Source: an uncultured virus (IMG/VR IMGVR_UViG_3300020048_000028)
Taxonomy: Duplodnaviria; Heunggongvirae; Uroviricota; Caudoviricetes
Virus record (IMG/VR): IMGVR_UViG_3300020048_000028
Direction: 5' to 3' (one strand)
Length of the DNA: 64,000 nucleotides
The notes under the pieces: model-generated
Told to the model about the DNA's origin: nothing
Seen by the model: the letters and a program-made list of their open reading frames with translations, nothing else
Databases searched by the model: none
Part shown: piece by piece, positions 14,302 to 51,567 of the stretch
How positions within the stretch are numbered: the first letter of the stretch is position 1
How the letters are laid out: each line of letters opens with the position of its first letter
Position numbers and translations under genes: made by a program

Positions 14302-15585
14302 ATGAGTAATTCTGATATAAAAAATAAAGGTGGTATGTTTCGTGGTAATTTACACTCTGAGGGAGGTATACCATTGGTCGTTAAAGGTAGTGGACAAAGC
14401 ATAGAAGTCGAAAAAGACGAGCCATTAATACCCTCAGAAGCTATGCAGGATAAGTCTGTAAAAAAGATAACAGGAACTAACGTAGAGATATTAAATAAGC
14501 TAAATAAAGACGTTGGTGCAAAAGGAATGAATGATAAAGCCACAGAAGTTTCTGTTGGTGATGCTATTGTTTGTAGAAAATCAGCTTATGATAAAACTAA
14601 AAGAACATATATAGGAACTCCTAAGCAAATTGTATCTGCCATCAATGAAAGTGGTGGATGTAAAGAAATTGAAAGTGGAGGTAAATCTATTGAACCTGAC
14701 GGTACTATTAGGCAATATGATAATGGCGGAGCAGTAAATGCTCGTTGGGATAAGAAGAAAAAAAACATTGAAGAACTTGCGAATAACATACAAAGATTAA
14801 GATTTAATCTAACAAAGGATTTGAAATCTGATAATGAAAAAGATTTTCTTAATGCTTTAGTTATTTCAATTATGATGAAAACAGGTGAGCGTATTGGTAA
14901 TAATACTTCAGCTTCAAACAATCATGTGGGAGTAACGGGCTTTAAAAAGAAACATATCAAAATTGATGGAACAACTGTTTATTTAAAATATACAGGTAAA
15001 TCAGGCGTTGAGCATGAAAAATCTTTTACCGATAAAATACTATCAGCTCATTTAAAGAGGGCTATTAAAAATTCTCCTAATAGTTATGTATTTTGCACTT
15101 CAGATGGTTTTAGAATTAAAGGCGACAAAGTAAATCGCTACTTAGAAGATTATGGCGTTTCAAACAAGGCTATCAGAGGCTTTTCCGCTAATAAATGGAT
15201 AGTTGATAAATTAGAAAAAATAGAAATTCCTGATACCGAAAAGAAAAGAAGAACTGTTTTTAATAAGGTTGCTAAACAAGTTGCTCAAAAAATAGGGCAT
15301 GGTACTGCTACTTTAAAAAAGCACTATATGATGCCTGAGCTTTCTGATAATTATATTTTTGATAAAGAAATTATTGATGTTAAAGAAGCGACTGTTTTTG
15401 CAACAGGTGGCGAATTAGTAGGCGAATCTTTAGAAAAAAGAGTTAAGAATAGATTAACCGATAATAGAATTTCATTAAAAGATTTAGCTGAAATAGTTGG
15501 TAGAGAGCCGAACTATCCAAATGAATATGTTGGAGATTTGAAACTTCAAAAATGTTTTCTTTTACCTTATTATAAATTATTATAA
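14302..15585 (+). CDS. modular protein with a type IB topoisomerase catalytic domain
   Basis: TGERIGN, YTGKSG, KAIRG and IGHGTATLKKHYM give the R-K-R-H-Y pentad; flanked by YDNGG and FATGG. Confidence 0.85.
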   Translation: MSNSDIKNKGGMFRGNLHSEGGIPLVVKGSGQSIEVEKDEPLIPSEAMQDKSVKKITGTNVEILNKLNKDVGAKGMNDKATEVSVGDAIVCRKSAYDKTKRTYIGTPKQIVSAINESGGCKEIESGGKSIEPDGTIRQYDNGGAVNARWDKKKKNIEELANNIQRLRFNLTKDLKSDNEKDFLNALVISIMMKTGERIGNNTSASNNHVGVTGFKKKHIKIDGTTVYLKYTGKSGVEHEKSFTDKILSAHLKRAIKNSPNSYVFCTSDGFRIKGDKVNRYLEDYGVSNKAIRGFSANKWIVDKLEKIEIPDTEKKRRTVFNKVAKQVAQKIGHGTATLKKHYMMPELSDNYIFDKEIIDVKEATVFATGGELVGESLEKRVKNRLTDNRISLKDLAEIVGREPNYPNEYVGDLKLQKCFLLPYYKLL

Positions 15586-15605
15586 AGAAATTAAAAAACA
15601 AAAAA

Positions 15606-16619
15606 ATGGAAAATGAAAATGATAGCTTTTTATCAAAATTTGAATGGAATAACTTTAATATTACAGCATTAAACATATTGTTAAGTGAATTATCTCAAAA
15701 TGGAGAAGTTTTTTTAGTCGGCATTTTTGATAATCAAATGCGTCCAATCAGAAATGTTTCTTTTGCGAATACTTTTAGGGTTAATGATATGGGTTTAAAA
15801 GTAGTTCCAACTAAAACTAAAGAAATGCAGATGATAGGAATTGATGTATTTGACAATAGCAATAATAATTATACAATATTTTTAGGAACAAAAACTAATA
15901 TTGATGCTTTAAGGTCTGTTTATAGTAAAATAGTGCCACCGTTTTCAGAAGGCGGTGGGGTTGGTAGCGAAATAACCCTTACAACCGAACAAGTTGAAAA
16001 TAAATTAGGCAGAGAACTACATTGGTGGAAAGATGATGTTGTTACTATTAATGGAACTGAATATAAAAAAATATTCTTAAAACCTGAATACAAGAGATTA
16101 TATGCTCTCGGAGGCAAAGTAAATGAAGAAAACGAGGATTTAGATTTATCTAAAGATTTTGCAATAAGAAATTTGTTTTATAAATATGAAAAACAATATC
16201 AAGATGAGTATAATGAAGATAATTGGATAAAATTCCATTATGGTGGTGAACGTAAAGGTGGTATTAAAGCACTTAAAGAATCACTTGAATTAATAGGTGA
16301 TGGTGAAATAACTGATAAAGGTGATAAACATTTTATGTATAAAGAAATGTTAAAGAATGATTCATTAATTTTAGTTGTTCACGCAATTTTAAAAAAACCT
16401 CCTTATGGTGGAATGGAAGGTTATAAATATAGTTTAGGCGTATATAGAAACAATCCAAGAACACAGCAAATTGGTGGTGGTTATGGTACAAGCGGTATAA
16501 TGAGTATTGAACATCCGATATTATTATCTTATGACGATTATGATATAGTACATCACAATCGTATTATTATATCTAAAGTATGTAACGATATTAAAAAATA
16601 TGCAGAAAAGTATTTTTAA
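15606..16619 (+). CDS. modular hypothetical protein (FSEGG and YALGG junctions, internal GRE-tag)
   Basis: Shares the EQVENKLGRE.HWW.DD...KK..L.PEYK segment with 16733 and 21040. Confidence 0.8.
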   Translation: MENENDSFLSKFEWNNFNITALNILLSELSQNGEVFLVGIFDNQMRPIRNVSFANTFRVNDMGLKVVPTKTKEMQMIGIDVFDNSNNNYTIFLGTKTNIDALRSVYSKIVPPFSEGGGVGSEITLTTEQVENKLGRELHWWKDDVVTINGTEYKKIFLKPEYKRLYALGGKVNEENEDLDLSKDFAIRNLFYKYEKQYQDEYNEDNWIKFHYGGERKGGIKALKESLELIGDGEITDKGDKHFMYKEMLKNDSLILVVHAILKKPPYGGMEGYKYSLGVYRNNPRTQQIGGGYGTSGIMSIEHPILLSYDDYDIVHHNRIIISKVCNDIKKYAEKYF

Positions 16620-16732
16620 AATATAAAAAATATATCCTAATTATATACATATAACAATATAGACAAGAAGAAGTATGAATTTGGAGGCTTAACAATGCGT
16701 AAGCCAAAAATGAGTTTTAAAAGAATAAATAA

Positions 16733-19700
16733 ATGAAATTATTAGCACCCAACGGAAAGCCGAGCAATCTAACTCCCGAACAATATCGTTTGGTTCGCAC
16801 TCCTGCGTTCAAAGCGTGGTTTGGGGATTGGGAAAACTCACCTGAAACAGCAAGTAAGGTTGTTGATTCTAATGGAGAGCCTAAAGTAATGTATCATGGA
16901 AGTATATCAAAGTTTACTATTTACGATACAAAAAGAACTGATTCTGATTGGAGAAGTCCATTTGTATTTATAACAGATAGAAAGGAAATCGCAGAAATTT
17001 TCGCTAAACAACACAAAACAGAAAGAAAACAATCAGTAAAAGTATATGAACTTTTTGTTAATATGAAAAATCCATTTGATATTTTCAATAAAGTAGAACA
17101 TTATAATATCGCAACAAAAATAAATAAAAAATTATTTAATAAGAGCGAAGATACTTGGGCTTTTTTAGAAACGACAGAAATTACAAGAGCCATAAAAAAA
17201 GGAAATTTTGACGGAATACACACTACTGAAACAGTTACTATTGGAAAAAATAAAAATGGTGATTATGTCCATGAATTGATAGAAAACATTGGTGTATTCA
17301 AATCAAACCAAATAAAACTCGCAGACGGCACAAACACTACTTTTGATTCTAACAATCCTGATATTCGTTATAACAATGGTGGTTTAACAATGAAAGCACC
17401 AAAACTATTAGCACCCAATGGACAGCCAAGTAACCTAACTCCCGAACAATACCGACTTGTTCGCACTCCTGCTTTTAAAGCGTGGTTTGGAGATTGGGAA
17501 AATTCTCCCGAAACTGCAAGTAAGGTTATTGATGAAGAAACTAAAGAGCCTTTGGTGGTTTATCATGGTTATATGGTAGGTGGTGGTGCAGGAAACAAGT
17601 TTTATGAATTTAAAAATCTACCTGCCTTTTTTTCTAAAAATAGAGATTTTGCAGAACAATACGCTTCAACTAAAAGCATGGATGCAGGGCTTGATGCCGA
17701 TATTTATTCTTATGCTTGTTTCTTAAATATTAGAAAACTATTTGACTCAAAAGATAAATCTATAATTGATTTAGCTAATGATAAATTGCCCGAAAAAATA
17801 AGAGTATCTCACGGAACTATGTGGTTTTTAAGTGCTGATATGCCAAAAGAAGAAGTGTTAGAGCTAATGAATGGAATTATAACTATTCCAACTGATGATA
17901 TGGCAGAAGATATTTTAGCGTCTAATATTGGCGATGTTATTGCCGAAAAAGTTTCGGCTTCACAATACGAAGATAAAATTTTATTATACAAGGATAACGA
18001 TTGGGCTTATATAACTGATAAGAAATATTTTAATGAAGTTGTTGAATATGAAGTTGCTGAATATATTTATAATTCTTACTCAAGACCATACGAAAAAAAA
18101 ATAACATATCGAGGTAAGAATTTAGCTATGTTCATTTTAAATGAAGAAACATACTCATACGAATTTAATAAAGACACTTTGTTTTTAGAATATCTTGATG
18201 AAGTTGAAAAAATAAAAAAATACTACATTGACAATATTTTATATTTATTGGATAATGCTAAAAAAAGATTAACAATAGAAGTAACAAATAAAGCAGGTAA
18301 TAAAAAAAATTTTTATGTTAGAAAAATAAACTTAAAAACATATAAAACAACTACAAATAATAATTGGACAATGTTTGAAAATGATACTGTGCAAAAATTT
18401 TTAATTGACAATAATTTTGGGGGTTGGATTGCTTTGGAAAAAGGAGATAAGACTTACGCAGTTTATGATAATAAAAACATTAAACTTGCAGATGGTACAA
18501 ACACTACCTTTGATTCTAACAATCCTGATATAAGATACGAAATCGGTGGAATTTTTCAAGGAACTCCACATGAATTTGATAAATACTCTACTGATTATAT
18601 GGGAACAGGCGAAGGGCAGCAAGTTTTTGGTTGGGGATTGTATTTTACTGATATTAAAGATATTGCCAAGCAGTATGCTAAAAATGAATTATTGATTGAA
18701 AAAGAAATAGCTAAAAAATCAAATGATTCTGCTCATCTATGGATTTACTCAAATGTACCAAGCCAAGTTAAAGATAAATTAGCTTATTTAAAAAACGAGT
18801 TAAATGATTTGGAAGAAAAACAAAGTCAATATACTAAGTTAGATTTAGCTGATAAAATTAAAACTTATAGAGATTTAATTGATATAATTGAAAATTATAA
18901 AGGAAAGGTATATTCCGTAACTTTATTTAAAGGAGAGAATGAAAGTGATTATGATTTATTGCTATGGGATAGTCCTGTAAATGTTGAGCAATTAGAAAAG
19001 ATATTTATAGAAGCTGAAAAAATAGGAGGTATTCCTTTAAAAGAAGGGTGGTATTTTAGTGAAACTAAATATGGAATTACTCCTAAATTATTGGAAGCAG
19101 GATATAGTAATGTTAATTTATTTGATGAAAGAAGTTCAGTAGTAAGAGGAGATAGATTATATAGTCATTTAGCAAAAGAATTAGGTTCTGATAAAGAAGC
19201 AAGTTTGTTTCTTCTTCGTGCAGGTATTGATGGAATTAAATATAAGTCGGGAACTTTATCGGGCATGGAAGATAAAGAAGGATATAATTATGTTATTTTT
19301 GATGATGATGATGTTACTATTGAAAATAAGGAACTATATAAGAATGGAGGTTTAACAATGAAAAAAACTAAAGCTGAATTATTAGCACCTAACGGAAAGC
19401 CGAGCAACTTAGCTCCCGAACAATATCATTTGGTTCGCACCCCTGCATTTAAGGCATGGTTTGGCGATTGGGAAAATTTACCTGAAACGGCAAGTAAAAT
19501 ACTTGACGATAACGGAGAGCCTTTAGTTTGCTATCATGGAAGTAATAATGATTTCAATGAATTTAGGAGTGATGTTGGTTATTCGCATGATAAGGGTTTT
19601 TATGGTCGTGGGTTTTATTTTACATTTAATACTGATACTAAATGGATGAGCTATGCAAAAGGCGAGGCAGGTTATTATGGTTCAAAAATTAAAGATTTTT

Positions 19701-21040
19701 TTATTCAGTCTTATAATCCATTTGATATTAGTGAATTATCAGTATATAAAGGAGTTAGGATTAATTATGTTGGAGCTGAATCAATAGTTTTTTTGAGTAA
19801 TATTGCAAAAATGTTTCCTCAGCTTTCTGATAAAATAAAAGTTGAGCAAAAAAAATGGAATAGAAATACTCAAGAATATGATTTTATTGATTTACCAATA
19901 AGTGTTTTACCTAATCTTATAGAAGAATATAGTAAAAAAGTGAAAACTTTCATTACTGATGATAATTGGGGAAATAGAAATAAAGTAAGCGGTTATGTGA
20001 AAGCTGAAATAGTAGAATACGACTATACAAGTACGGGAGGAACTAAAGGTTCTTATGAAAGTATTGACACTTTAGACACTTATGATGATAAACTAAAAAA
20101 AGAAGAAATTGAAATTCTTTTGATTTGTGCTGCAATAGAAAAATATGACGGCATAGAAGCTCGTTATAATCCTGAAGGATATATGACAAGACTTCCTGAA
20201 ATTACAGATGCTATAAAAGAAAATCACGATAGTATTTTGCAAACTAAGTATGGAGATGAATTAGTTGCGTTTAAACCAACACAAATAAAGCTTGCTGACG
20301 GAACAAACACTACTTTTGATTCTAACAATCCTGATATAAGATACGCTCAAGGAGGTGGATTAGATAATGATGTTAAAGTGAAAATAATTGAAGATGATAG
20401 TTTAGCTGAAAAAGTTTACGATATTGTTCAAGATGATTTATCTGTCGCAGTACCAAGATTAGCACTTATTGAAAATGGTAAAGTTATCGGAGGAATATAT
20501 TTAGAACCTGCTCATGTTTTAGATGGCAAGAGAGAGCCTTTATGGGAATATAAGTTTGATATTTATATTAAGAGAAGTAAAAGAAAAAAAGGTTATTCAA
20601 AAATTCTTTTAGATGCTATGATTAAGGATTTTGTGGATAATTTCCATGATGCCGACCAAATAAGAGGAGAGGTTATTAACAATAGACTTGAAAAATCACT
20701 TATTAAAAATTATGGTTTTCATTGCGATAGTGGAAATCAAGAAGAAATTACTTATTGTTATTTATCAAGAGAAGATGCTATTGATTATTTAAAAAGAGGT
20801 AAATTTTCAAATGGAGGAAATACCAAAACATTACTTGAAATAATAAATACTGACGGAGAGCCGAATATTATAAATGATATTATTGATATAGGTGGATTTG
20901 ATGAGGTTTTATCAATAGAACAAGTAGAAAATAAATTAGGCAGAGAGATACATTGGTGGAACGATGATATTGTTTACCTTAGTGGCATAAAATATAAAAA
21001 AGTTTATTTACGTCCTGAATATAAAAAAGTTGTTGAATAA
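16733..21040 (+). CDS. polyvalent protein: 3 ART-like modules, one GxGxxxxGWGLYF ART-like module, GNAT-like module, C-terminal tag
   Basis: Repeated LAPNGKPSNL...WFGDWE...YHG...QIKLADGTNTTFDSNNPDIRY; KRKKGYSKILL acetyl-CoA-type motif. Confidence 0.8.
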   Translation: MKLLAPNGKPSNLTPEQYRLVRTPAFKAWFGDWENSPETASKVVDSNGEPKVMYHGSISKFTIYDTKRTDSDWRSPFVFITDRKEIAEIFAKQHKTERKQSVKVYELFVNMKNPFDIFNKVEHYNIATKINKKLFNKSEDTWAFLETTEITRAIKKGNFDGIHTTETVTIGKNKNGDYVHELIENIGVFKSNQIKLADGTNTTFDSNNPDIRYNNGGLTMKAPKLLAPNGQPSNLTPEQYRLVRTPAFKAWFGDWENSPETASKVIDEETKEPLVVYHGYMVGGGAGNKFYEFKNLPAFFSKNRDFAEQYASTKSMDAGLDADIYSYACFLNIRKLFDSKDKSIIDLANDKLPEKIRVSHGTMWFLSADMPKEEVLELMNGIITIPTDDMAEDILASNIGDVIAEKVSASQYEDKILLYKDNDWAYITDKKYFNEVVEYEVAEYIYNSYSRPYEKKITYRGKNLAMFILNEETYSYEFNKDTLFLEYLDEVEKIKKYYIDNILYLLDNAKKRLTIEVTNKAGNKKNFYVRKINLKTYKTTTNNNWTMFENDTVQKFLIDNNFGGWIALEKGDKTYAVYDNKNIKLADGTNTTFDSNNPDIRYEIGGIFQGTPHEFDKYSTDYMGTGEGQQVFGWGLYFTDIKDIAKQYAKNELLIEKEIAKKSNDSAHLWIYSNVPSQVKDKLAYLKNELNDLEEKQSQYTKLDLADKIKTYRDLIDIIENYKGKVYSVTLFKGENESDYDLLLWDSPVNVEQLEKIFIEAEKIGGIPLKEGWYFSETKYGITPKLLEAGYSNVNLFDERSSVVRGDRLYSHLAKELGSDKEASLFLLRAGIDGIKYKSGTLSGMEDKEGYNYVIFDDDDVTIENKELYKNGGLTMKKTKAELLAPNGKPSNLAPEQYHLVRTPAFKAWFGDWENLPETASKILDDNGEPLVCYHGSNNDFNEFRSDVGYSHDKGFYGRGFYFTFNTDTKWMSYAKGEAGYYGSKIKDFFIQSYNPFDISELSVYKGVRINYVGAESIVFLSNIAKMFPQLSDKIKVEQKKWNRNTQEYDFIDLPISVLPNLIEEYSKKVKTFITDDNWGNRNKVSGYVKAEIVEYDYTSTGGTKGSYESIDTLDTYDDKLKKEEIEILLICAAIEKYDGIEARYNPEGYMTRLPEITDAIKENHDSILQTKYGDELVAFKPTQIKLADGTNTTFDSNNPDIRYAQGGGLDNDVKVKIIEDDSLAEKVYDIVQDDLSVAVPRLALIENGKVIGGIYLEPAHVLDGKREPLWEYKFDIYIKRSKRKKGYSKILLDAMIKDFVDNFHDADQIRGEVINNRLEKSLIKNYGFHCDSGNQEEITYCYLSREDAIDYLKRGKFSNGGNTKTLLEIINTDGEPNIINDIIDIGGFDEVLSIEQVENKLGREIHWWNDDIVYLSGIKYKKVYLRPEYKKVVE

Positions 21041-23964
21041 TGAATTTAGCACCCAACGGAAAGCCGAGCAATCTTAATCCCGAACAATACCGACTTGTTC
21101 GCACTCCTGCATTTAAAGAATGGTTTGGAGATTGGGAAAGTGCCTATGAAACAGGAAATTATGATAATGTTTCAAAAGTTATTGATAAAAACGCAGAGCC
21201 TAAAGTATTGTTTCATGGTTCACCTGATATTGATAAAATTAATGTTTTCAAATCAAGTAAAGGTTTTGATTATAGTTTTTTTGCAAATGATTTTCATGAA
21301 GCATTAAGATATACTCCTAATGGTAATGATAGAAATAAAGTAAAATCATTTTTTGTAAATTCATTAAAAAAATTCGATTGTGAAAATCTAAATGAAAAAG
21401 AAATAAATGATATAAAAAAATTACTAAATATTGACTCTGTTAAAGAAGTTTTTTTTAAACATATTAAAGATATAGGTTTTAGTAAAGATTCATATAAGGA
21501 AGAATTGGGATATGAGCGATTAAATGATGATGATTTTTTATTTAAAATATTTATACAGGGTGGTGATAATTGGGTTATAATTGAACATCCTATAATTCAG
21601 AATTATATAAAATCAAACGGTTATGATTCTTTTACAACTTTAGAAGGTGATAATGGTAATATTGCTGTTTATAATCCTAATCAAATAAAGCTTTCCGATG
21701 GTACTAATACTACATTTGATTCTAACAATCCTGACATAAGATATAATAATGGTGGAGATATTGAAGAACCTACTGAGTTTTGGGGAGAATCGGCAGCAGG
21801 AGTATTATTAATTTGTAATAAAACAAATAGAGTTTTATTGTTTCATAGAAGTGAAGATGTTTACGAGCCTGAAACTTGGGGAATTATAAGTGGTAAAATA
21901 GATGAAGATGAAAATCCTAAAGAGGCTATTTTAAGAGAGCTTATTGAGGAAACGAAATTTAGTGAAAAAGAAGTAAAAAGTATTGTTTTAAAGCCGTCTT
22001 ATGTTTATAAAAAAGGAAGCTTTACTTTTTATAATTACTTAGGTTTTGTTGATAGTGAATTTACTCCAACTCTTAATTGGGAAAATACCGATTATAAATG
22101 GTGCGACATAGGAGATTATCCTCAGCCATTACATTTTGGCGTTTCGTTATTATTAAAAAATATTGATTTAAAAAAAGAGTTATACAAAAAAACAATAAAA
22201 AAGAAATTATTAGCACCCAACGGAAAGCCGAGCAATCTAAATGAAGTTCAACATTATTTGGTTCGCACCCCTGAATTTAAAAAATGGTTTGGTGATTGGG
22301 AATTATTGTATCAATACAAAGACAGATACACATACGAAGGACATGATAGATTATTTGGGCAACCAAAAATAGGAAATGAATACGATTTAGTTGATGGTAC
22401 AAAAGCAAAATTGTTAAGTTTAGATAAAGAAAAAGGACAATATGAAGTTTTAATTTATGGAAAAAAACAATTCATTTCTTTCAGAAGAATGCTTTATTTG
22501 TATTCAGGAATACCTGATGTTTTTACTGAAGAACGACTATTAGAAATAAGTAAAGTCGTTGATTCTAACGGAGAGCCTTTAGTGGTATATCATGCAACTG
22601 ATAATAAATTTTGGGAATTTAAAAAAGAAAAACAAATTGTTGGCTATTATGGAAAAGGCTTTTATTTTTCAAGTAGTTTGGAAAAATCAAAAGATTATGG
22701 CAAAAGAGTAATACCTGCATTTTTAAATATAAAATCTGTTTTCACTTTATCTGATGAAACTCCACAAGAATTATTAAATGAATTAGCAGAAACAGATTTT
22801 GAAGTTCCATCATCTCCATCGCAATTAGGTTGGCGTGAAGAAAACGACATAGAACAAAGGTCAAAATATACTTTTGGGTATGCTTCTGAAAATTCAGATG
22901 TGTTTATGAGGAATCTTATTAAGAATGGTTTCTATGGTATAAAAATGACTTATGACTTTAAAAATGAAATAAATTTTTTTATTGCATTTGAACCCAATCA
23001 AATTAAATTAGCAGATGGCACTAATACTACCTTTGATTCTAATAATAATGATATAAGATACAAAAAAGGAGGAGAATTAGAACTATATCATGGAGGTCAA
23101 AAGGTTTTTAAGAAATTTAAAACCAATTTAGTTGATAGAATTGATTACGGTTGGGGTTTATATTTTTCTGATTCCGAAGAAGTTGCAAAATATTATGCAA
23201 GACGACCTTTTGATAGACCATTAATATTTAAAACTATATGGGATTCTGATTTAAGTTTAGATGAAAAAGGTGATGTATTATATTGCGTTAGGCAAAATCT
23301 ACTTGATATTCAAAAATCAAAAAAAGAATTAAATGAAAAGTTTTATCCATTATTAGATAAAATAGAACAAATTGTAAAAAACAAAGGAGTTGTTTATAAG
23401 GTAGATGTAGAAAAAGGAAGGTGGCTTGATTGGGATAAAAAAGTTCCTGAATACATACGTTTAATGTTTGCTGATATTAAGTCCGAATTTTTTGAAAGTG
23501 GAGAAGATTTATATAACTATTTAAGTAGAAAAGAACAATCCGAAAAAAAAGCTTCTATTATTTTACTTAATAAAGGTATTGAAGGCATAAAATATAAAAT
23601 ATCTAATAATATAACTAATACCAATATAAAAGGTTATAATTATGTAATCTTTGACGATGATTATATTAAAGTAAAAGAAGTTTTTAGATATAATAACGGA
23701 GGAGAATTTAAAGAAGTAGTATGCAGCTCATGTGGTTGGGGTTGGAATAAGCACGAAAGTGAAGAAGATGAAATATATGTGTGCCATAAATGCGGAACTG
23801 ATAATAACCCTGCTCATAAAGTTTCCGATTTACTTTCTTCACAAGAAGTTGAGTATAAGTTAGGCAGAAAGCTTGATTGGTGGAACGATGATATTGTTTA
23901 CCTTAGTGGCATAAAATACAAAAAAGTTTACTTACGACCTGAATATAAAAAAGTTATTGAATAA
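21040..23964 (+). CDS. polyvalent protein: ART-like, Nudix, ART-like, ART-like, Zn ribbon, C-terminal tag
   Basis: Nudix box GKIDEDENPKEAILRELIEET; CSSC...CHKC; same ART flanks as 16733. Confidence 0.8.
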   Translation: MNLAPNGKPSNLNPEQYRLVRTPAFKEWFGDWESAYETGNYDNVSKVIDKNAEPKVLFHGSPDIDKINVFKSSKGFDYSFFANDFHEALRYTPNGNDRNKVKSFFVNSLKKFDCENLNEKEINDIKKLLNIDSVKEVFFKHIKDIGFSKDSYKEELGYERLNDDDFLFKIFIQGGDNWVIIEHPIIQNYIKSNGYDSFTTLEGDNGNIAVYNPNQIKLSDGTNTTFDSNNPDIRYNNGGDIEEPTEFWGESAAGVLLICNKTNRVLLFHRSEDVYEPETWGIISGKIDEDENPKEAILRELIEETKFSEKEVKSIVLKPSYVYKKGSFTFYNYLGFVDSEFTPTLNWENTDYKWCDIGDYPQPLHFGVSLLLKNIDLKKELYKKTIKKKLLAPNGKPSNLNEVQHYLVRTPEFKKWFGDWELLYQYKDRYTYEGHDRLFGQPKIGNEYDLVDGTKAKLLSLDKEKGQYEVLIYGKKQFISFRRMLYLYSGIPDVFTEERLLEISKVVDSNGEPLVVYHATDNKFWEFKKEKQIVGYYGKGFYFSSSLEKSKDYGKRVIPAFLNIKSVFTLSDETPQELLNELAETDFEVPSSPSQLGWREENDIEQRSKYTFGYASENSDVFMRNLIKNGFYGIKMTYDFKNEINFFIAFEPNQIKLADGTNTTFDSNNNDIRYKKGGELELYHGGQKVFKKFKTNLVDRIDYGWGLYFSDSEEVAKYYARRPFDRPLIFKTIWDSDLSLDEKGDVLYCVRQNLLDIQKSKKELNEKFYPLLDKIEQIVKNKGVVYKVDVEKGRWLDWDKKVPEYIRLMFADIKSEFFESGEDLYNYLSRKEQSEKKASIILLNKGIEGIKYKISNNITNTNIKGYNYVIFDDDYIKVKEVFRYNNGGEFKEVVCSSCGWGWNKHESEEDEIYVCHKCGTDNNPAHKVSDLLSSQEVEYKLGRKLDWWNDDIVYLSGIKYKKVYLRPEYKKVIE

Positions 23965-23976
23965 ATTAAGATTATT

Positions 23977-24591
23977 ATGTATAAACCTGTATTATTACCC
24001 TACTCATATTCGGACTTAGAGCCGTCTATTGATGCTGAAACAATGAATGTTCATTATAATAAGCACTATTTAGGCTATCTAAATAATTTGAATGATGAAT
24101 TTAAAAAGTATGATTTACCTATTTTACCTATTCAAACATTAATTAAGAATATTGATGATTTTTCGCAAAATGTTCGTAATAATGCAGGTGGGTATTATAA
24201 TCACTCTTTGTTTTGGAAAATGCTAACTCCTATAAACAATAAATCTAACAATTTACCAATAGGTATTTCCAAAAATATAATTGATAGAGATTTCGGTAGC
24301 TTTGCAATGTTTAAAAAATTAATTGAAAATACTGCGAAAAAAAGATTTGGTTCGGGGTGGGTATGGTGGATAGTTATGCCTAATGGACATACAAAAATTG
24401 TTGAAACTCCTTATCAAGATAATCCACAAATGTATTATAATTGTCATATATTATTAGGTATTGATGTTTGGGAACACGCTTATTACTTAAAATATAAAGC
24501 AGATAGAATGAAATATGTAAACAATATTTTTGATATAATTAATTGGGATTATTGTAATAAAATTCTTTCACTTTTTTTATATAAAAAATAA
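23977..24591 (+). CDS. sod: Fe/Mn superoxide dismutase
   Basis: HYNKH, NHSLFW, FGSGW, DVWEHAYY. Confidence 0.95.
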   Translation: MYKPVLLPYSYSDLEPSIDAETMNVHYNKHYLGYLNNLNDEFKKYDLPILPIQTLIKNIDDFSQNVRNNAGGYYNHSLFWKMLTPINNKSNNLPIGISKNIIDRDFGSFAMFKKLIENTAKKRFGSGWVWWIVMPNGHTKIVETPYQDNPQMYYNCHILLGIDVWEHAYYLKYKADRMKYVNNIFDIINWDYCNKILSLFLYKK

Positions 24592-29141: not shown

Positions 29142-29145
29142 TACT

Positions 29146-29367: not shown

Positions 29368-29382
29368 TTATAATTATAGTAA

Positions 29383-30787: not shown

Positions 30788-30898
30788 ATGGAATCACTAC
30801 AAAAAACAATAAAAAAACACACTTTCAAAGATGGTGGTGCTGTAAAGGAAGAATATTTAAAAGGTTATAATTTTAAAGATTACGATGATGTACAATAA
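30788..30898 (+). pseudogene. truncated paralog of 32334..34073, interrupted by the IS left end
   Basis: MESLQKTIKKHTFKDGGAVKEEYLKGYNFKDYDD versus MELTLQDTI...FKDGGSVDAEKEKEFLSGYNFKDYED. Confidence 0.75.
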
Positions 30899-36314: not shown

Positions 36315-36320
36315 AAATAA

Positions 36321-39934: not shown

Positions 39935-39958
39935 TACAACATCATTAAAATTATTAAA

Positions 39959-40633: not shown

Positions 40634-40634
40634 T

Positions 40635-43800: not shown

Positions 43801-46800
43801 ATTTATTGAGCATAGTAGATTTTTTAAAGATGAAAATTCCCAAGAATTTTTACTTAACGATAATCAAATTGACGGTATTAAATTCCATGTAGGTAATGAT
43901 AATAGCAGCTTATTAGCTCACGAGGTTGGTTTTGGAAAGACCACTACTTCTATTTGCTCACTTACACATAATTTCCTTACAGGTAAAGCTAATAGAACAA
44001 TGATTTCTGTGCCTAATCCAACTTATATAAATTGGATTTCTGAAATGAAAGGTCAAACTATTAGTGATACTAAAAAGCTTAGAGGTTTAATTCCTCACAT
44101 TAATATTGTAGAATTAAAGAATGCAAGAAAAGATGTATTTTTAAAATATGATGCTAAGACATTTACTCAAACTGAAGGTATTAAAAAATACACTAAGAGT
44201 CAAATACAAATCATTCATAACTTTGCAAGTGCAACATCAATAATAGTTGCGGAAATAAATCAAAGAGTTAAAAAGATTTATTTTACTGATTATGAATCAA
44301 AGAAAGAAAATTTTGATGCTCTTATTAAATTTATAGAAAAAACATTTGATTCCAATCTTACGGATTGGAGAAGCGAAGCTTTTTTTACTAATTATTTTGA
44401 AGAATTGGGTGAAAATAAAAATGAATATCAAAGCCAATTTAACGATAAAATTAATATAGAGAATGATTTAGAATTTAATTCAGTTCAGAAAGTTAACGAT
44501 AATCTTAATAAAACTCAAAAAGAAAAAGATGATGAAATCCTAAATATTAGAGATAAGTATAAAAAGAAAAAGATTAAAATATTTGAAGATTCTTCAAAAG
44601 ATTTCACGAGTCAGGTTATTGCTTTACTTAAATCTAAGCAAAATTCTATATTTGATGTTATTGGTGTTTATGAAGAATGTTTTTTAAGAAAATATTCAGT
44701 AATAATTTGTACGCATGAGGCAATAGGTCAATTACGAGTAAATAAGGAAGTGGCACAACAGATTTCAATGGAGTTGAAAGACAATAATAGTTTTGCTGAT
44801 GAATTAGAACGAAACGCAATAGGTTTTGATAAGTTAGATATTGATTCTATCATTGTTGATGAGGTTCATAATTTTAATGAATTATTTGCATATTCAAAAA
44901 GACAAATTTCTCAACTTATACCATCTTACAGAAGTAAATCTTATTTTATAGCATCTGATTATTCACTTAATTCTTTATCTAATATTGGTTCACCAAGATT
45001 TGCAAAGAAAGCAAGAGGTACAAATTTGAGTTCAGTTATTAAGTTTAACTTATCTTCTAAAAAAACGAGTGTTATAAAGTCAAGTTTGTTCGGTATATGT
45101 AAAACTTTACAAAATAATTTCTCTAATAAGAAGGCTATTAATATCATGTTGTTATCCGCAACTCCATTCGTTGATAATTTATTTCAGATGATAGGGGTAT
45201 TTAATATGTTAAGACCTTTTCCTTTACCAATAAACTTCTTTTCAAACTATTTATATCAAGAGTGGGATTGGGAAAATGACCATAAAGGAGAAACTGTATT
45301 AAAAGTTCAAACGTCAAACTTTAAAAATCACGATGCGAGAAATAATTGGATTAGGCTTTATAGTCAATTTTATACATTTGACCAAAGAATTAATGCAAAA
45401 AGACCTAATAAGTTTGTTTACCCTTATGATTGCAAAAACTCAGTTAATCAATATGAGGATAATTGTAATTCAAGCGTTTATCTTGACTTTTCAGAAGAAC
45501 AATACTCTATTTATAAAAACATAGGTAAGTTTGTTGATGGTGTTATTGGCAGAGATAATATAGTTAAAATTAAATTAAATACAGTTGCTGTAACTAAAGA
45601 GTTATATATAGATTCTGATAATATTACTACCTGTAAAGAATTAATTGATAAATCAGATTCTTCTTATGACTTAGAATCAGCAGCAGAGCTATTTATTCAT
45701 AATAATTGGATTCAGGTTCTACTTGATACTAAGAGTGAATATCATAAAGAAATTTCTGAAATATACGATGTTATTAAAGAAGAATATTTGAAACAAATTT
45801 CCGATGAGGAAGATGAGGATTCTAAATTAGATGACGATGGCGAAGTTAGTGTTCAAGATATAAATGATGAATCTGAAATTAGTGGAAATGGAATAAGTGA
45901 TGCAGGTACAAGAGCTTTGCAGGCACAGGATTTAGGAAAAAAATTATCATTATCTCCATACATGATTACTGCTATGGAAAATGGTGTTAATTTATTTAAA
46001 GATTCTTATATAAATTCAGATTTACCTCCTTTATATGGAATGAATACTCCTGAAAATATGCTTAAATCAGCTATTAATTTTGTGGAAACATCTCCTAAAA
46101 TATATTTTTGCGTTAAAGCTATTCAATGCTTAATTAAAAAACATATAGAAAATGGTGAGGATATTTCAGGTCAGATTATTTATATGGCTTGGGGACAATC
46201 TTTTTGGTATGGTGGTTATATGTATAATGGAATGGAATTGATAAAGGCTTATTTAGCAAATTCATTAAACTTAAATAAAACGTTTACAGTTGAAGAATCG
46301 GATGAGCTTTCACGCTCAGGAGTAGATTCTAAAAAATGTGGTGCATCTGATATTTCTGTAAAAGCTAAAAAAGAAAATGTATTAAAGAGTTATAATTTAA
46401 GTGAAATACAAATTGTTAGTGGAAAAAGTCAAGATGCTTTGAAAAAAAGTGCTATATCTAAATCTTTCAACAATGGTAAAATTAAAGTATTAATTGGTTC
46501 AGGTACAATTAAAGAAGGTATAAATTTACAGGGTGAAAAAAATCATGGAAACTCTACTATTTATGTACTGACTGCTGAATATGCTCCAATGGCAATGATG
46601 CAATTAGAGGGCAGAATTTGGCGACAAGGAAATCCTCTTGAGAATGTTAGAATGGTTTATCCTTTAATTAAAAACTCTATTGACTCTCATATTTATTCTA
46701 AATTGAACGAGAAAATTAAAAAAGTGAAAAATATGCTTGAGGCAGGTATTTACGATTTTAAAGAAACTCAATTTGATAAAGATATTGAGGGAGTTTCTCT

Positions 46801-48058
46801 TGCTTTAAATACAAATATTGAAGAAAAAATTAAAATATTATGGGGTAAGGAAACTCGCTCTATTAATAAAGAAGCTGCAATATTTGATTCGTATAAAACA
46901 AGAGTTCAAGATGTTAAGAAAAAATATAGTAATTCTATATCGTTATTGGATGACTTGGTTACTGTTTTTAACTCTGTAAGTAAAGCTGTTCAAGATTATT
47001 ATTTAGGTACTTTTATTAAAAATGATTTTCGTATTGAAAGTGCTAATATAAAAGATAGATTTAAGGCTGAAAGAGTTGCATTAGTAGATAGCATAAATAA
47101 AACTTATGATGCTGATTTATTAGAGTGGGAAAGATTGAAAGAGGAAAATGAAAAATTAAATAAGGAAAATGAAAAGAAAAATAAAGCTAATGATAAGTTT
47201 ATCAAAGAAGGTAAAATTAAAAAAATAGCTAAAATTGAATTTACTTTAGATAAACCTCTTAAAAAAGATGAAAAATATCAACCTGATTACGGTTTAATTG
47301 ATTTACAAGAAGAAAATTCTTTAATTGAAGCTAAACAAAAAGCTATTGATATTAATTTGAAAAAAGCGGAAGATGGTATATTTACTGAAGATGAAATAAT
47401 TTATTATACTCCTATTAATAACACTATGGCTTATTCTGATATTTCAGCTATTGTAAATAAGTTATTATCTCAATTATCAGCTTTATGGATTTCTATTATT
47501 CCTAATGATGAAATGATGGTTTATAACGGTAGAATAAAAGTTAGCGGATATTATTGGGTAGCAGAAAGTAAAGGTTTAATGGTAGATTATAATTTAACAT
47601 CTACGTTAAACTCAGATACAATGCTTTCTTCAAGAATGTCAACAGCTATAAAGGAAAATAATATGCAAAATGTATATGGTGGTTTTTCTTTATTCAAAGA
47701 CTTCTGTAAATTGTTTACAGGTGGAGGAGGAATAGAAGGCGTACTTTCTGATTACCAATCACTTGTTACCGTAAATGGAAAGGATATAACTACCATTGAT
47801 GATTTAATCAATGATTACGAAATTAAGATTAGAGAGTACAACGATAAACTTAATAACAAGGATGCGTTTTTTGCTAAATATAGAACTATGTTTGTTGAGC
47901 AAGAAGAAAAAATTAAAAAAGAAAGAGAGTCTTTGACAAATATGAAACAATATGTATTGCTTGATGTAAATAAGTTCTGTGAAACGAACAAATTTATATA
48001 CATAAAAGGTTCATTGTCTGAAGATGAAAAAAAAATAATGTTTAAAATAAAAGAATAA
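40874..48058 (+). CDS. giant SF2 (SNF2/DarB-like) helicase
   Basis: LAHEVGFGKT (I), IVDEVHNF (II), LSATPF (III), EGINLQ (V), QLEGRIWRQGN (VI). Confidence 0.9.
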   Translation: MDKNFIQYQASSVKDLIDLFDYTFTSDGNEYKLIDFVKSQLITYPDLRPYVSQLFDKKITNDKEWFTYNISAEYVEVLFQADDYDEVCLNFVKLYNSYVLYKNDTIVIEFGRNNAWEIKSKEFYSDKNKSNIIDTQNVGFVYNPELSETVQTSRTEIDFSSNSDIERYRDILTIFKNGISFYTKDEARGESSYSIVDKDRDKIFVSEPVKSIIINQTNLKGVIPLQSNFYFNPEDVNKQVSVSVRADLEYAEWKSDVSDIDILNDNIAVYNEVNKLRDLAKSKANSYIGANYIDKINKKALLKSKYKFYSLASLKDKNNLYPNTAVNLVFNKERTISTMVDGYDFYYTMALLCKVDSDITFDIYYDEENKKVVFLGSRMMSVKTPIGFNQSTMQLEYAIKDVFLTITLPVLEQYYNIIDEVWLFSYSLSTSLSEIIEYNKELDEISKIKIPTEFLNQKDIIAKGQMVKIESIEEKINNTKSKGKVLLNKVASYIEDYILTYCHKKQFDVKDENGNVVSVKNIYEPNTTDKRFFTQGTQEGTQVNYDYVWKVNELFWRYNNNLSIIEMMAYFVAKGDDYYYRLLSYRILGVDCYLFKDLLIEPLLVEGVLCIDDFSINVQLKSIEKPLSYSYKYEYATGNYYEKRRKLFSIDQSDLDNLSIYPMRESVILYFGREIGENIIQNQLFLLENRLVKPSEMTWNSKSDNSKLFSNPLDPIFLQSETVNIKNKSGYSNLVVKDFYDFLGSARFTNDQVTRKDLLYAYVLRLPESVSIPLQFINEFNCYKIAILSKENPENTKGVDVFAVFGANDNKNEKPLFLANDSINSQDCKYYIRNKNFAGSIKFKRRRKMTKKGYKDLGTYAFSKNLDHLDDESFINLFEGGFISKDEYDNNLINTINRKKIVAEILIAFNTKQPKVIIEGDIQFNKYMNTKVDNLDALKMQQIWNERYNYSMYPKQSVMVEGFNEVLKLDNSKFPIFIEHSRFFKDENSQEFLLNDNQIDGIKFHVGNDNSSLLAHEVGFGKTTTSICSLTHNFLTGKANRTMISVPNPTYINWISEMKGQTISDTKKLRGLIPHINIVELKNARKDVFLKYDAKTFTQTEGIKKYTKSQIQIIHNFASATSIIVAEINQRVKKIYFTDYESKKENFDALIKFIEKTFDSNLTDWRSEAFFTNYFEELGENKNEYQSQFNDKINIENDLEFNSVQKVNDNLNKTQKEKDDEILNIRDKYKKKKIKIFEDSSKDFTSQVIALLKSKQNSIFDVIGVYEECFLRKYSVIICTHEAIGQLRVNKEVAQQISMELKDNNSFADELERNAIGFDKLDIDSIIVDEVHNFNELFAYSKRQISQLIPSYRSKSYFIASDYSLNSLSNIGSPRFAKKARGTNLSSVIKFNLSSKKTSVIKSSLFGICKTLQNNFSNKKAINIMLLSATPFVDNLFQMIGVFNMLRPFPLPINFFSNYLYQEWDWENDHKGETVLKVQTSNFKNHDARNNWIRLYSQFYTFDQRINAKRPNKFVYPYDCKNSVNQYEDNCNSSVYLDFSEEQYSIYKNIGKFVDGVIGRDNIVKIKLNTVAVTKELYIDSDNITTCKELIDKSDSSYDLESAAELFIHNNWIQVLLDTKSEYHKEISEIYDVIKEEYLKQISDEEDEDSKLDDDGEVSVQDINDESEISGNGISDAGTRALQAQDLGKKLSLSPYMITAMENGVNLFKDSYINSDLPPLYGMNTPENMLKSAINFVETSPKIYFCVKAIQCLIKKHIENGEDISGQIIYMAWGQSFWYGGYMYNGMELIKAYLANSLNLNKTFTVEESDELSRSGVDSKKCGASDISVKAKKENVLKSYNLSEIQIVSGKSQDALKKSAISKSFNNGKIKVLIGSGTIKEGINLQGEKNHGNSTIYVLTAEYAPMAMMQLEGRIWRQGNPLENVRMVYPLIKNSIDSHIYSKLNEKIKKVKNMLEAGIYDFKETQFDKDIEGVSLALNTNIEEKIKILWGKETRSINKEAAIFDSYKTRVQDVKKKYSNSISLLDDLVTVFNSVSKAVQDYYLGTFIKNDFRIESANIKDRFKAERVALVDSINKTYDADLLEWERLKEENEKLNKENEKKNKANDKFIKEGKIKKIAKIEFTLDKPLKKDEKYQPDYGLIDLQEENSLIEAKQKAIDINLKKAEDGIFTEDEIIYYTPINNTMAYSDISAIVNKLLSQLSALWISIIPNDEMMVYNGRIKVSGYYWVAESKGLMVDYNLTSTLNSDTMLSSRMSTAIKENNMQNVYGGFSLFKDFCKLFTGGGGIEGVLSDYQSLVTVNGKDITTIDDLINDYEIKIREYNDKLNNKDAFFAKYRTMFVEQEEKIKKERESLTNMKQYVLLDVNKFCETNKFIYIKGSLSEDEKKIMFKIKE

Positions 48059-49932: not shown

Positions 49933-50415
49933 ATGACACATTCGGTTTTTATTGATAAAATAGGTAGAATATTTCAAGGTGATTTGTCAGAATCTATTGA
50001 AAATTACGATAGATATAAAGATTTATCTCAAATGGGAGTTGGTAGATTTTCTGAAAAGAATGTTTACCTATTAGATGAATCAAATAACATTATTAAAAGT
50101 TTTGGAACTACAAGGTTTGATAATGGCGGAGCTGTTAAAGACAATATAGATGTTGTAAAATACTTTTTATTAGGAAAAAAAATAGATAAAATGCCTGATG
50201 AGTTTTCTGTATTAGAAAACCCAATAGGTTCTGATAACTCATCTGTTTTAATATATAAAACGCTTGACGGTCATTATCCTTTAATTGAAAAAAAGTCTAA
50301 GAAAGAGGCTAATTTTAATAAAAGTAATTTTTTATCTAATGATTATATCAATGAATTAGAAAGTAGATTTAAGAATATTTGTGTTACAAATGCAATTAAG
50401 TTTGAGGTTAAGTAA
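49933..50415 (+). CDS. hypothetical protein with an FDNGG junction
   Basis: RFDNGGAVK. Confidence 0.75.
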   Translation: MTHSVFIDKIGRIFQGDLSESIENYDRYKDLSQMGVGRFSEKNVYLLDESNNIIKSFGTTRFDNGGAVKDNIDVVKYFLLGKKIDKMPDEFSVLENPIGSDNSSVLIYKTLDGHYPLIEKKSKKEANFNKSNFLSNDYINELESRFKNICVTNAIKFEVK

Positions 50416-50417
50416 AA

Positions 50418-50873
50418 ATGGATAAGGCTAATATATTTTTATTTAATTATTTAAAAGATAATATCATATATAAACCTGAAATTCCAATAATATATAACAG
50501 AAAAAGTGATTTTATAACTTTGCAAAGAAAGCTTGTTACTTGGAGAGAAAATGGAATAAGTTATAATGAAAAATACAAAAATAATTCTCTTACTAAAAAT
50601 GAAGTTTGGAATATATTGAAAAGTTTAGGATATAAAGTAAATGAATTTAATTTTAAAGAATTGCATAAAAAAGAACATTTTGATTACATAGGTAAAGAAA
50701 TCTCTTATTACAGAAATGATGTAAACGATTCTGATGATAAATCTAAGTTATCTCCTGAATTAGTTAATAAATATAATAAAGACGGTTTAAATACTGTAAT
50801 TATATTTGCATTAAGATTTCCTGAAAAAAGAGGATTTATTTTGCATTCTGATGGACGAATAGAACAACATTAA
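50418..50873 (+). CDS. hypothetical protein, C-terminal hxIxxxGxI family
   Basis: Ends GFILHSDGRIEQH. Confidence 0.7.
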   Translation: MDKANIFLFNYLKDNIIYKPEIPIIYNRKSDFITLQRKLVTWRENGISYNEKYKNNSLTKNEVWNILKSLGYKVNEFNFKELHKKEHFDYIGKEISYYRNDVNDSDDKSKLSPELVNKYNKDGLNTVIIFALRFPEKRGFILHSDGRIEQH

Positions 50874-50877
50874 AAAA

Positions 50878-51567
50878 ATGGAAATAGTAGAAAAATTAAA
50901 AAAAGACATTGAATTACTTACGGTATTAAGTACTGATTTATCATTCGATGATGCGGTATTGGAAGATGCAAATTCTTTAATATCAATAAAAAATAATGAG
51001 ATAATCGACTTAGGAGCAACTCCTTATGTCGAACCTGTTAAAAACATTGGTATCAGCGTTAGTGATGCTGTAAATATCATTCTTAAAAAGATTAAATCTA
51101 TCTATAAGTTTAAAGATATGAATGATAAATCTAAGAAGAAATATAAAACTCTTAATTTATTATTGAGAATTAATACTAAAATGACTTATGAGGATTATCT
51201 TAATAATGGAGAAAAGTTTGAAGGAGGTGGAGCTGTAAAGAATTTCTCTAATGATACGATTTCTAAACTTGAAAGTGGAAATCAATTTTATAAATTGATG
51301 GAAACTTCAGAAAGCCCTATTTTAAAATATAAAACTCCTGATAACTCGTATTTGTATCAAGTTCTTTTAGAAAGTGGAAATTTAGCTTTTGCTTTAATTT
51401 ACCGTATTGAAAATAATACTATTGTTGACTTTTATCAAGATGAAGATTTAAGTCAAAGTATAAATTTAATATCTTCTTTTGAAGATGAATTAGCTGAAGA
51501 ATCCTTTAAATTAAAGTATGACGACATGATGAGGTCGCTTTATGAGGCTGAAAAAAAATATTATTAA
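50878..51567 (+). CDS. hypothetical protein with an FEGGG junction
   Basis: KFEGGGAVK. Confidence 0.75.
   Translation: MEIVEKLKKDIELLTVLSTDLSFDDAVLEDANSLISIKNNEIIDLGATPYVEPVKNIGISVSDAVNIILKKIKSIYKFKDMNDKSKKKYKTLNLLLRINTKMTYEDYLNNGEKFEGGGAVKNFSNDTISKLESGNQFYKLMETSESPILKYKTPDNSYLYQVLLESGNLAFALIYRIENNTIVDFYQDEDLSQSINLISSFEDELAEESFKLKYDDMMRSLYEAEKKYY

Follow-up and report, generated by a model that had tools for sequence, protein, structure and literature searches.

A conserved Gly-Gly peptide at the module junctions and ends of phage polyvalent proteins

The polyvalent protein genes of the window

The window analyzed here is a stretch of 64,000 nucleotides from an uncultured virus of the Caudoviricetes (IMG/VR record IMGVR_UViG_3300020048_000028), which carries between positions 14,302 and 34,073 six large open reading frames (ORFs; 337–1516 aa) in which a short Gly-Gly peptide, [YF]xxGG, recurs at the borders of protein modules. 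Its GC content lies at 25–32%, nearly all genes are on the plus strand, including every gene and motif site described below up to position 51,567, and the protein encoded by 24591–29141 is recorded from a 153,097-bp contig. When the window ORFs were scanned (Pfam at E ≤ 0.1, PHROGs at E ≤ 1e-5), Pfam recognized ART-PolyVal, NUDIX, GNAT, hemerythrin, topoisomerase IB and DUF5661 domains in the six ORFs, with ART-PolyVal (PF18760) reaching 1.9e-44, 6.6e-33 and 2.3e-28. We assign these ORFs to the phage 'polyvalent proteins' of the Iyer/Aravind type, a class in which two to fifteen disparate effector domains are combined per polypeptide, as they are here. Signature domains of the class (ART-PolyVal, LPD) are represented by ART-PolyVal in the window and by LPD11 (3.6e-31) in G001, the closest relative that was fetched (102,228 bp, from IMG/VR, with a completeness rating of 100%), and in line with a class encoded by phages or conjugative elements, the relatives lie on IMG/VR viral contigs. 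The embedded zincin-like MPTase hub, a non-obligatory feature present in about 36% of polyvalent proteins according to the accessible parts of the class description (Iyer 2017, PMC5512222), was not found in the polyvalent ORFs of the window.

The same source predicts that polyvalent proteins are delivered together with the DNA, describes mosaic shuffling of their modules and predicts the release of their domains by peptidases (Iyer 2017, PMC5512222), and for phage phi24B a preprint, as far as its text was available, reports a polyvalent protein detected in virions by mass spectrometry. For the window proteins, too, transport in the particle and delivery along with the DNA are probable. The element itself is phage-like: window ORF 55367–56218 shares 38% identity with a G001 ORF that has a weak large-terminase match, and G001 has PHROG matches to tail-fibre, baseplate-hub and tail-lysozyme proteins. 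No capsid, portal or head-protease family was recognized in the window by Pfam or PHROGs.

The six ORFs are divided by the motif into 4–10 segments each. The first (14302..15585, 427 aa) starts with an 'HSEGG' anchor module (residues 1–143) that is followed by topoisomerase IB (residues 151–342; Topoisom_I 4.4e-20) and a C-terminal tail, and bears the motifs YDNGG at 14716 and FATGG at 15397. The second (15606..16619, 337 aa; FSEGG at 15942, YALGG at 16101) resembles in its residues 120–165 the C-terminal module of the two ORFs that follow. The first of these (16733..21040, 1435 aa) contains internal repeats and several ART-PolyVal copies (Pfam 1.9e-44, four stretches) and junction motifs at 17369, 18536, 19337, 20342 and 20804; the next (21040..23964, 974 aa) contains an ART, a NUDIX (residues 252–362), a second ART (508–665), a DUF3990-like and a C-terminal module, with junction motifs at 21742, 23059 and 23689. 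The largest (24591..29141, 1516 aa) comprises ten segments, namely an ART, a GNAT-like, a DUF3140-like, an unassigned 251-aa, a hemerythrin, a further ART, a GNAT and three small modules, separated by motifs at 25161, 25584, 26001, 26754, 27147, 27804, 28248, 28503 and 28881; a PDB sequence search with this ORF gave no match. The sixth (32334..34073, 579 aa) harbors DUF5661 at residues 458–514 and the motifs FKDGG at 32733 and YKNGG at 33603. Situated between two polyvalent genes, 23977..24591 encodes a Fe/Mn superoxide dismutase (Sod_Fe_C 9.8e-32, Sod_Fe_N 1.3e-22) with one Gly-Gly and no junction motif; the gene is complete, and its stop codon overlaps the start of the next polyvalent gene.

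Enrichment, consensus and placement of the motif

A first-pass annotation, made from the letters of the DNA alone, had listed 26 positions of the motif, and all of them are present at the given positions. In the six polyvalent ORFs (5,268 aa) we counted 25 occurrences of [YF]xxGG, where 2.6 are expected from 2,000 composition-preserving shuffles (sd 1.6, maximum 11); in the remaining 38 ORFs of the window (12,401 aa) there are 6, with 2.6 expected. Likewise, a tyrosine or phenylalanine stands three residues ahead of 25 of the 48 Gly-Gly runs in the polyvalent ORFs (background 0.109, binomial p 2e-12) and of only 4/37 in the other window ORFs. Not all instances are independent of each other: a recurring ART module ends in the motif about eight times (...NPDIRYxxGG), and two more come after a GYNYVIFDDD module that is also repeated, which together concerns about 10 of the 25; at least 14 follow unrelated sequence.

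The motif extends beyond its core. In full it reads [KR]-[YFML]-x-x-G-G-x-[IVLTM], methionine and leucine being able to take the place of the aromatic residue, and a logo of 221 non-redundant sites gives [KR]-[YF]-[KEA]-[DNK]-G-G-x-[IVTL]. In the pooled relatives, the second residue past the glycines is I, V, L, T or M in 1,369 of 1,571 motifs (background 0.26), and the hydrophobic residue has K or R ahead of it in 814 of 1,578 (52%; background 0.14). We found the strict motif 19 times in the polyvalent ORFs of the window versus three times in the 12,401 aa elsewhere, two of these three being the sites at 50116 and 51217 discussed below; in G001 the numbers are 39 in 6,610 aa of polyvalent protein versus 5 in 23,313 aa elsewhere. 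The extended form also separates the chance matches inside domains of which the first-pass annotation had warned: YMVGG at 17570, FIQGG at 21550, FHYGG at 16233 and LYHGG at 23083 do not fit it, and none of these four has I, V, L, T or M two residues past the glycines, as opposed to 23 of the 26 listed sites.

That conservation acts at the protein level, as had been claimed from the varying codons, is borne out. The glycine codons of the motif (GGT 12+14, GGA 12+10, GGC 3+3) are used near bulk proportions, so that selection acts on the protein, and the glycines are kept across homologues. A recombination signal at the DNA level was rejected because codons at the motif vary like bulk; a Shine-Dalgarno sequence with internal start (GGAGG within the glycine codons) was likewise rejected, as the GGA share is about that of bulk and a downstream methionine occurs inconsistently. 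Selection maintains the motif itself, irrespective of the modules that flank it. Two small genes downstream of the cluster illustrate its reach. The 160-aa two-part protein of 49933..50415 carries RFDNGGAV at 50116, and in an alignment of ten sequences (this protein and nine homologues, with identities down to 48%) G65 and G66 are invariant, F62 is conserved in at least 90% and V or I stands two residues after the glycines; by this conservation we regard the 50116 site as real. The second, 50878..51567 (229 aa), holds a strict match, KFEGGGAV, at 51217.

With regard to placement, the first-pass annotation had noticed the motif between recognizable domains, and indeed each of the eight best Pfam stretches is bracketed by motifs while none contains one. 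Cutting the ORFs at the motif would give pieces of the size of single domains, such as ART 195 aa, GNAT-like 141 aa, DUF3140-like 139 aa, hemerythrin 131 aa, ART 219 aa and GNAT 148 aa. A search with residues 196–860 of the 24591–29141 protein returned 280 large relatives, and the 120 listed ones contain 734 [YF]xxGG in 165,865 aa, with Y or F at position -3 of 42% of their Gly-Gly runs. We then compared 125 related proteins all against all by BLAST. As many as 53.6% of 31,125 internal alignment ends fall within five residues of a motif, compared to 5.1% for random positions; the ends peak at the second glycine (0) and at +2 and +3 past it, the starts at -4 to -6. Since the breakpoints of homology fall on the motif, it marks the point at which modules are exchanged.

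The borders of a single module type show the same. Among the best 150 of 814 matches to the DUF3140-like module, obtained from 1.84 billion representatives, the upstream border is formed by [YF]xxGG in 87, by another Gly-Gly (mostly with M or L at -3) in 38, by the N-terminus in 19 and by neither in 6; downstream, the respective numbers are 110 for [YF]xxGG, 31 for another Gly-Gly, 3 for the C-terminus and 6 for neither. The motif thus flanks unrelated modules in hundreds of proteins. In the ART-PolyVal tails of other phage clades (IMG/VR loci), NxDIR[FY] is kept, and a Gly-Gly within nine residues of this tail was found in 0 of 34 pattern matches, about 29 of which are real tails. Hence, the Gly-Gly is an addition specific to this clade rather than a part of the ART domain. 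Taken together, the motif is real, conserved and specific to its clade, and it tags both the junctions and the ends of phage polyvalent proteins.

Protein ends and neighboring genes

The designation as an end tag derives from a survey of 248 proteins with the pattern [YFML]xxGG. About 25 of them open with a leader of 0–24 residues that runs directly into the motif (e.g. MKKGG, MPKQFEDGG), and 16 terminate within three residues past the glycines. A further 17 end in GG-L[MI]KRRS[RQ]KRNQ after unrelated modules, two more close with a similar but shorter basic tail, and at least nine end in Gly-Gly plus 16–19 residues closing with YL[KR]MFL. The short C-terminal tags past the last Gly-Gly are accordingly of two kinds, the basic 11-aa LMKRRSRKRNQ and a 16–19-aa tail ending in PDYLKMFLGK (P0026, P0032, P0077, P0081 and others); both are possible targeting peptides. 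Motifs in tandem enclose spacers of 10 aa (FMNNVYAKGG), 18 aa (DIQAYEEAMGISEFDEGG) and 21 aa.

The 'HSEGG' module, of about 130 aa and built of two repeats (G-x-L-H-S-E-G-G...E-V-E-x-D-E), as in residues 1–143 of ORF 14302, occurs in 128 pooled sequences, in 64 of them at the very start of the protein and in 40 at its very end. It matches nothing in Pfam or PHROGs nor the T5 protein pb2, and only an ESM lead (rank 29, score 0.89) likens it to the crAss cargo domain; we consider the module a candidate anchor for loading or ejection. Similarly, a module of about 45 aa (EQVENKLGRE..YKKVYLRPEYK) is C-terminal in nine of ten occurrences. These terminal modules and tags look like loading signals for whole chains. 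As a separate observation, the acidic AQ-repeat protein 52667–53311 ends in ~35 residues (..IIGREPDYPTEKINDLVLRKQYMKPFYELI) that resemble by eye the C-terminus of ORF 14302 (..IVGREPNYPNEYVGDLKLQKCFLLPYYKLL).

In G001, the polyvalent cluster (19419–28964) is accompanied by two adjacent giants of 2,267 aa with 20 motifs and of 1,179 aa with 12 motifs, and in the latter LPD11 and DUF2958 each lie within one motif-delimited segment. These giants (L088; L084:1987-5526) are divided into pieces of 10–436 aa and contain repeated spacers of 10 aa (FMNNVYAKGG) and 21 aa (AFAPSVSNGTEFMSGVYANGG). Between the G001 cluster and a MoxR-like AAA+ gene lies a 586-aa ORF (28973–30733), which for the most part is a (GQ/GE)n repeat of some 250 residues.

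Within the window cluster, an IS605-type TnpB (OrfB) gene is inserted at 31012..32205 (OrfB_IS605 8.3e-24, Cas12f1-like_TNB 2e-11). Upstream of it, the 36-codon ORF 30788..30898 contains FKDGGAV (motif at 30824) and partly duplicates residues ~131–165 of ORF 32334, with about 26 residues in common (HTFKDGGAVKEEYLKGYNFKDYDDVQ; compared by eye, without a score), which points to a sequence partly duplicated at the site of TnpB insertion or to a paralogue truncated there.

Downstream of the polyvalent genes follow a vWA-like protein (34361..35323, 320 aa) with a DVSGS motif of the MIDAS type, an AAA+ ATPase-like protein (36321..38468, 715 aa; MoxR-like by its context) with Walker A GKSSIGKS and Walker B LLLDELDK, all three motifs being assigned by eye, and a candidate zinc metallopeptidase (38465..39934, 489 aa) with QHE[IL]GH, D122, a 'DxRIN' motif and a KOW-like C-terminus. 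Behind them lies a multidomain DarB-like SNF2 giant (40874..48058, 2394 aa; PHROG DarB-like 5.2e-17, Pfam SNF2-rel_dom and Helicase_C), which has no motif at its recognized junctions and a single strict match, FTGGGGI, at residue 2281 near its C-terminus. Neither Pfam nor PHROGs matched the AAA+ protein, and the window vWA protein has no significant Pfam match; its positional counterparts in the loci L093 and L096 match VWA (5.3e-5) and DUF2201 (PF09967; 1.9e-4 and 8.7e-4, both below the curated cut-offs).

The first-pass annotation had seen no Ulp1/adenain-like protease in the window, and no clan CE family was detected there by Pfam or PHROGs, nor any known protease family of whatever kind. 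Among the relatives, a PHROGs scan of 66 G001 ORFs (about 25 ORFs of 100–140 aa were left out) detected no protease family, and none appeared in the ORFs of the L008 stretch or in 14 Pfam-scanned ORFs. The zincin-like HExxH protein 38465–39934 inside the cluster had been overlooked. Its HExxH is the only one among the 44 window ORFs examined, and the protein is not polyvalent; an alignment of 13 homologues shows Q112, H113, E114, G116, H117 and D122 to be invariant. Of the 30 named clusters closest to it in the ESM Atlas, 27 contain PF13203 (DUF2201_N, a putative metallopeptidase; best score 0.91, with 165 shared features); we treat this as a lead only, and a PDB profile search with the family gave weak KOW likeness only.

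The set of a vWA-like, an AAA+-like (about 700 aa), an HExxH and an about 240-aa protein directly upstream of a DarB-like SNF2 gene of about 2,400–2,500 aa (34361–40633 in the window) is conserved at six metagenome loci (L090 and L092–L096), whose GC content ranges over 27–41%. L090 shares the order polyvalent, vWA, AAA+, HExxH, 245 aa and ~2,400-aa giant, as does L092 up to the start of the HExxH gene, where this locus ends. Searches by blastn and tblastn for relatives of 34361–39934 and of 36321–38468 found none in GenBank phages and none in IMG/VR. The set resembles the MoxR-vWA-metallopeptidase system of jumbo phages in a split version. A second zincin candidate is embedded in sister polyvalent proteins: a 233-aa module (YYFLHE[LI]GH..GETFAENF) with a motif on either side is present in 17 of the 248 relatives. 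By tblastn and profile search it was found neither in G001 nor in the metagenome loci, apart from one 13.7-bit match in a 147-aa G001 ORF.

Two further features of the window stand apart from the cluster. A row of glycosyltransferase and methyltransferase genes (57254–62028; FkbM and TylF types) suggests modification of sugars or DNA by the phage, and a 167-aa ART-PolyVal ORF at the 3′ end (63315–63818; Pfam 3.7e-12) suggests that a second polyvalent region starts beyond the window.

A processing signal or an uncut joint, and comparison with known systems

The first-pass annotation had read the giant ORFs as polyprotein cargo cut into separate effectors, by analogy to adenovirus and African swine fever virus (ASFV). 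Of this reading, the position at module junctions, the conservation at the protein level and the membership in a virion-associated protein class stand; the analogy itself does not, because no clan CE protease is found in the window and the hydrophobic residue stands one position further from the glycines than in (M/I/L)xGG-X. The explanation towards which we lean, tentatively and with less than even confidence, is that the motif serves as recognition and processing signal for polyvalent chains that are cut by a protease. The whole chain would first be targeted via its terminal anchor module or tag, and a protease would then cut at or beside the Gly-Gly and thereby free the individual enzymes. 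The likeliest enzyme class would be a zincin metallopeptidase, either the standalone HExxH protein 38465–39934 acting with its AAA+ and vWA neighbors or the zincin module embedded in sister polyvalent proteins. The enrichment, the position at junctions, the residue preferences on both sides of the glycines, the restriction to this clade and the presence of zincin candidates count for such a signal. So do motifs behind leaders and before tails, where no domains need separating, and motifs in tandem, as may, by analogy, the peptidase-release proposal of Iyer 2017 and the proposal made for the MoxR-vWA system of jumbo phages, in so far as the accessible parts of both papers go. A more far-reaching version, possible but in our judgment rather doubtful, would be that every clade of cargo-carrying phages has its own 'junction code', in this clade [KR]-[YFML]-x-x-G-G-x-[IVLTM], and that the code is read by a dedicated zinc protease together with an AAA+/vWA chaperone pair, which would cut the strings after they have been loaded through their terminal anchors. 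If this were true, one gene would yield ten or more separate anti-host enzymes in addition to small released peptides, and recombination at the code would add modules without any retuning of the protease.

Several observations weigh against cleavage. Neither zincin candidate tracks the motif strictly. In L093–L096, the AAA+/HExxH/vWA set is present while 10 kb upstream hold no motif-rich ORF and the adjoining SNF2 ORF of about 2,500 aa has no motif; the set hence follows the DarB-like gene and not the motif, and it may serve the DarB-like giant rather than the Gly-Gly motif. Neither tblastn nor a profile search detected the embedded zincin module in the window, and G001, which is rich in motifs and rated complete, has neither this module nor a PF13203 match; the latter is lacking throughout G001–G003. 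The window protein 38465–39934 itself gave no Pfam hmmscan match at E ≤ 0.1, neither to PF13203 nor to any other family, and kinship of its family with MPTase-PolyVal, carried among the relatives by P0025 only, was rejected at an hhalign probability of 0.2%. Furthermore, the spacing between the hydrophobic residue and the module core is fixed in two module types (NPDIR-Y; ELGY-x4-Y), so that this residue could be a structural cap and not a protease subsite. Finally, the virion RNA polymerase of phage N4, which is of polyvalent type, is packaged uncut as far as the accessible text reports (Iyer 2017, PMC5512222), which by analogy speaks against processing.

These points lend weight to an explanation without any cut, which we regard as a real possibility although a somewhat unlikely one. 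The motif would be an uncut hinge and swap joint, a flexible link of five residues (x-x-G-G-x) between buried hydrophobic residues of adjacent modules; the chains would stay whole like beads on a string, threading through the tail would perhaps be eased, and the joint would persist because in-frame exchange of cassettes succeeds only there. The homology breakpoints exactly on the motif fit this well, as do the fixed spacing and the finding that the aromatic residue of the ART tail is kept in clades without Gly-Gly and so belongs to the module. That no motif-linked protease was found in the window, in G001 or in the loci searched points the same way, and alongside the N4 enzyme, the accessible parts of the class description name ArdC and TraC1 as transferred uncut (Iyer 2017, PMC5512222). 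In addition, the motif codons provide some built-in microhomology in an AT-rich genome; however, their choice equals that of bulk, so no DNA-level signal is maintained. A hinge also leaves unexplained why motifs follow N-terminal leaders of 0–24 residues or stand 0–3 residues before the stop, why they occur in tandem around 10-aa spacers and why K or R is preferred ahead of the hydrophobic residue (52% versus a background of 14%), and the multidomain DarB-like proteins of the same phages do without it. The terminal motifs fit docking or export about as well as cleavage, and a linear motif bound by capsid, portal, scaffold or a chaperone (perhaps the AAA+/vWA pair) could load the cargo without a cut, with many copies per chain giving avidity. 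This we consider improbable. The conserved short tags next to terminal motifs (LMKRRSRKRNQ, PDYLKMFLGK), the 20 and 12 copies in the two G001 giants, the chaperone-type pair within the cluster and the terminal position of the anchor module in 64 plus 40 of its 128 carriers, suggestive of organized loading, are in its favor. Yet a docking motif need not be placed precisely at every module border, the presumed structural proteins are without it, no binding partner was identified, and what connects the anchor with the crAss cargo domain is only the ESM lead mentioned above, with no Pfam match. Very improbable is a cut after Gly-Gly by a cysteine protease of clan CE (adenain, ASFV or Ulp1 type) encoded outside the window. 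The Gly-Gly core would suit it and 89 kb of the 153-kb contig lie outside, but the family is missing from the window, no protease of any kind was found among the scanned G001 and L008 ORFs, and the hydrophobic residue stands at -3 from the first glycine (phi-x-x-G-G) rather than as in the quoted phi-x-G-G. As for chance or an artefact of paralogous repeats, to which the roughly 10 of 25 instances behind two repeated modules might lead, we give it practically no credence: none of the 2,000 shuffles exceeded 11, unrelated modules are flanked in hundreds of proteins, and orthologues conserve the motif down to 48% identity.

Whichever explanation applies, the motif adds a new feature to a protein class already known, and we found no description of it in the open-access literature. 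Polyvalent proteins rank with the largest and most diverse proteins that phages encode, and the 2017 proposal that they are cut into effectors has no mapped site in the open-access literature as far as it was searched. A defined eight-residue junction peptide makes this proposal directly testable at named residues. Hundreds of proteins carry it at almost all of their module borders, with the same modules occurring in other clades without it, and it provides a practical rule for splitting modules in annotation and structure prediction; the short terminal tags and the terminal anchor module can be flagged as candidate packaging signals.

Cleavage near Gly-Gly has precedents in other viruses. The adenovirus protease cuts (M/I/L)xGG-X, and the ASFV protease pS273R cuts GG-X in structural polyproteins. 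Common to these and the motif are the Gly-Gly core with an upstream hydrophobic residue and the occurrence in virion proteins, which for the window is predicted; here, the form is phi-x-x-G-G with polar residues at -2 and -1 in the 221-site logo. The potyviral protease HC-Pro has a site of the form YxVG/G. It is a papain-like enzyme that makes one cut at its own C-terminus, whereas the residue at P2 is polar (D, N, K or E) and not valine in our motif and no upstream cysteine protease module was identified. Its self-cleavage between two glycines within a Tyr-containing consensus is documented in the part of the literature available (PMC3509676) and has the same spacing of Tyr to Gly-Gly (Y-x-x-G-G) as the motif described here. 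In phage T5, the tape-measure protein pb2 is reported in the accessible text to be cut after R1127 (Linares et al. 2023, PMC10038345). This cut, ...SFVPR|AEGGMMYPG, lies one residue upstream of A-E-G-G-x-M, which resembles x-x-G-G-x-[IVLTM]; an arginine takes the place of the hydrophobic residue, and as a single site at one of five Gly-Gly in 1,219 aa its proximity has a chance probability of about 5%. As a homologue of the anchor module pb2 was rejected, since the anchor profile finds nothing in it. Sharing of the motif by the crAss001 cargo protein gp45 was rejected as well: this glycine-rich protein has F at -3 of 3/20 Gly-Gly runs, which by a rough estimate is not above chance.

In phage T4, packaged effectors such as the internal proteins and the ADP-ribosyltransferase Alt carry a short terminal capsid-targeting sequence and, once loaded, are trimmed by the head protease gp21 at (L/I)xE. 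This is the closest functional analogue known to us, with the differences that T4 cargo consists of single proteins instead of module strings and that no gp21-like protease is seen here. Conserved junction motifs also demarcate the swappable toxin domains of CdiA (VENN) and Rhs proteins (DPxGL), an analogue that supports the swap joint. For the AAA+, vWA and HExxH proteins, the nearest counterpart is found in the jumbo phages of group 2.2, where a MoxR AAA+/vWA pair, with the vWA protein fused to a metallopeptidase domain, has been assigned a putative role in virion assembly that includes peptidolytic processing, according to the parts of the study at hand (Iyer et al. 2021, PMC7824862). Candidates for these three components lie together in our window, with separate genes for peptidase and vWA; their putative membership in the DUF2201 family is suggested by motifs, an ESM lead and weak Pfam matches in relatives, and the set follows the DarB-like giant. 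The class itself is that of the polyvalent proteins of Iyer 2017 (PMC5512222), which likewise shuffle ART-PolyVal, NUDIX, GNAT, topoisomerase IB and LPD11 modules. The accessible text of that work names no junction or cleavage motif and uses 'junction' only of Holliday junctions. In contrast to the class described there, as far as that text covers it, the proteins of the window lack the MPTase hub, and one clade-specific peptide delimits nearly every module.

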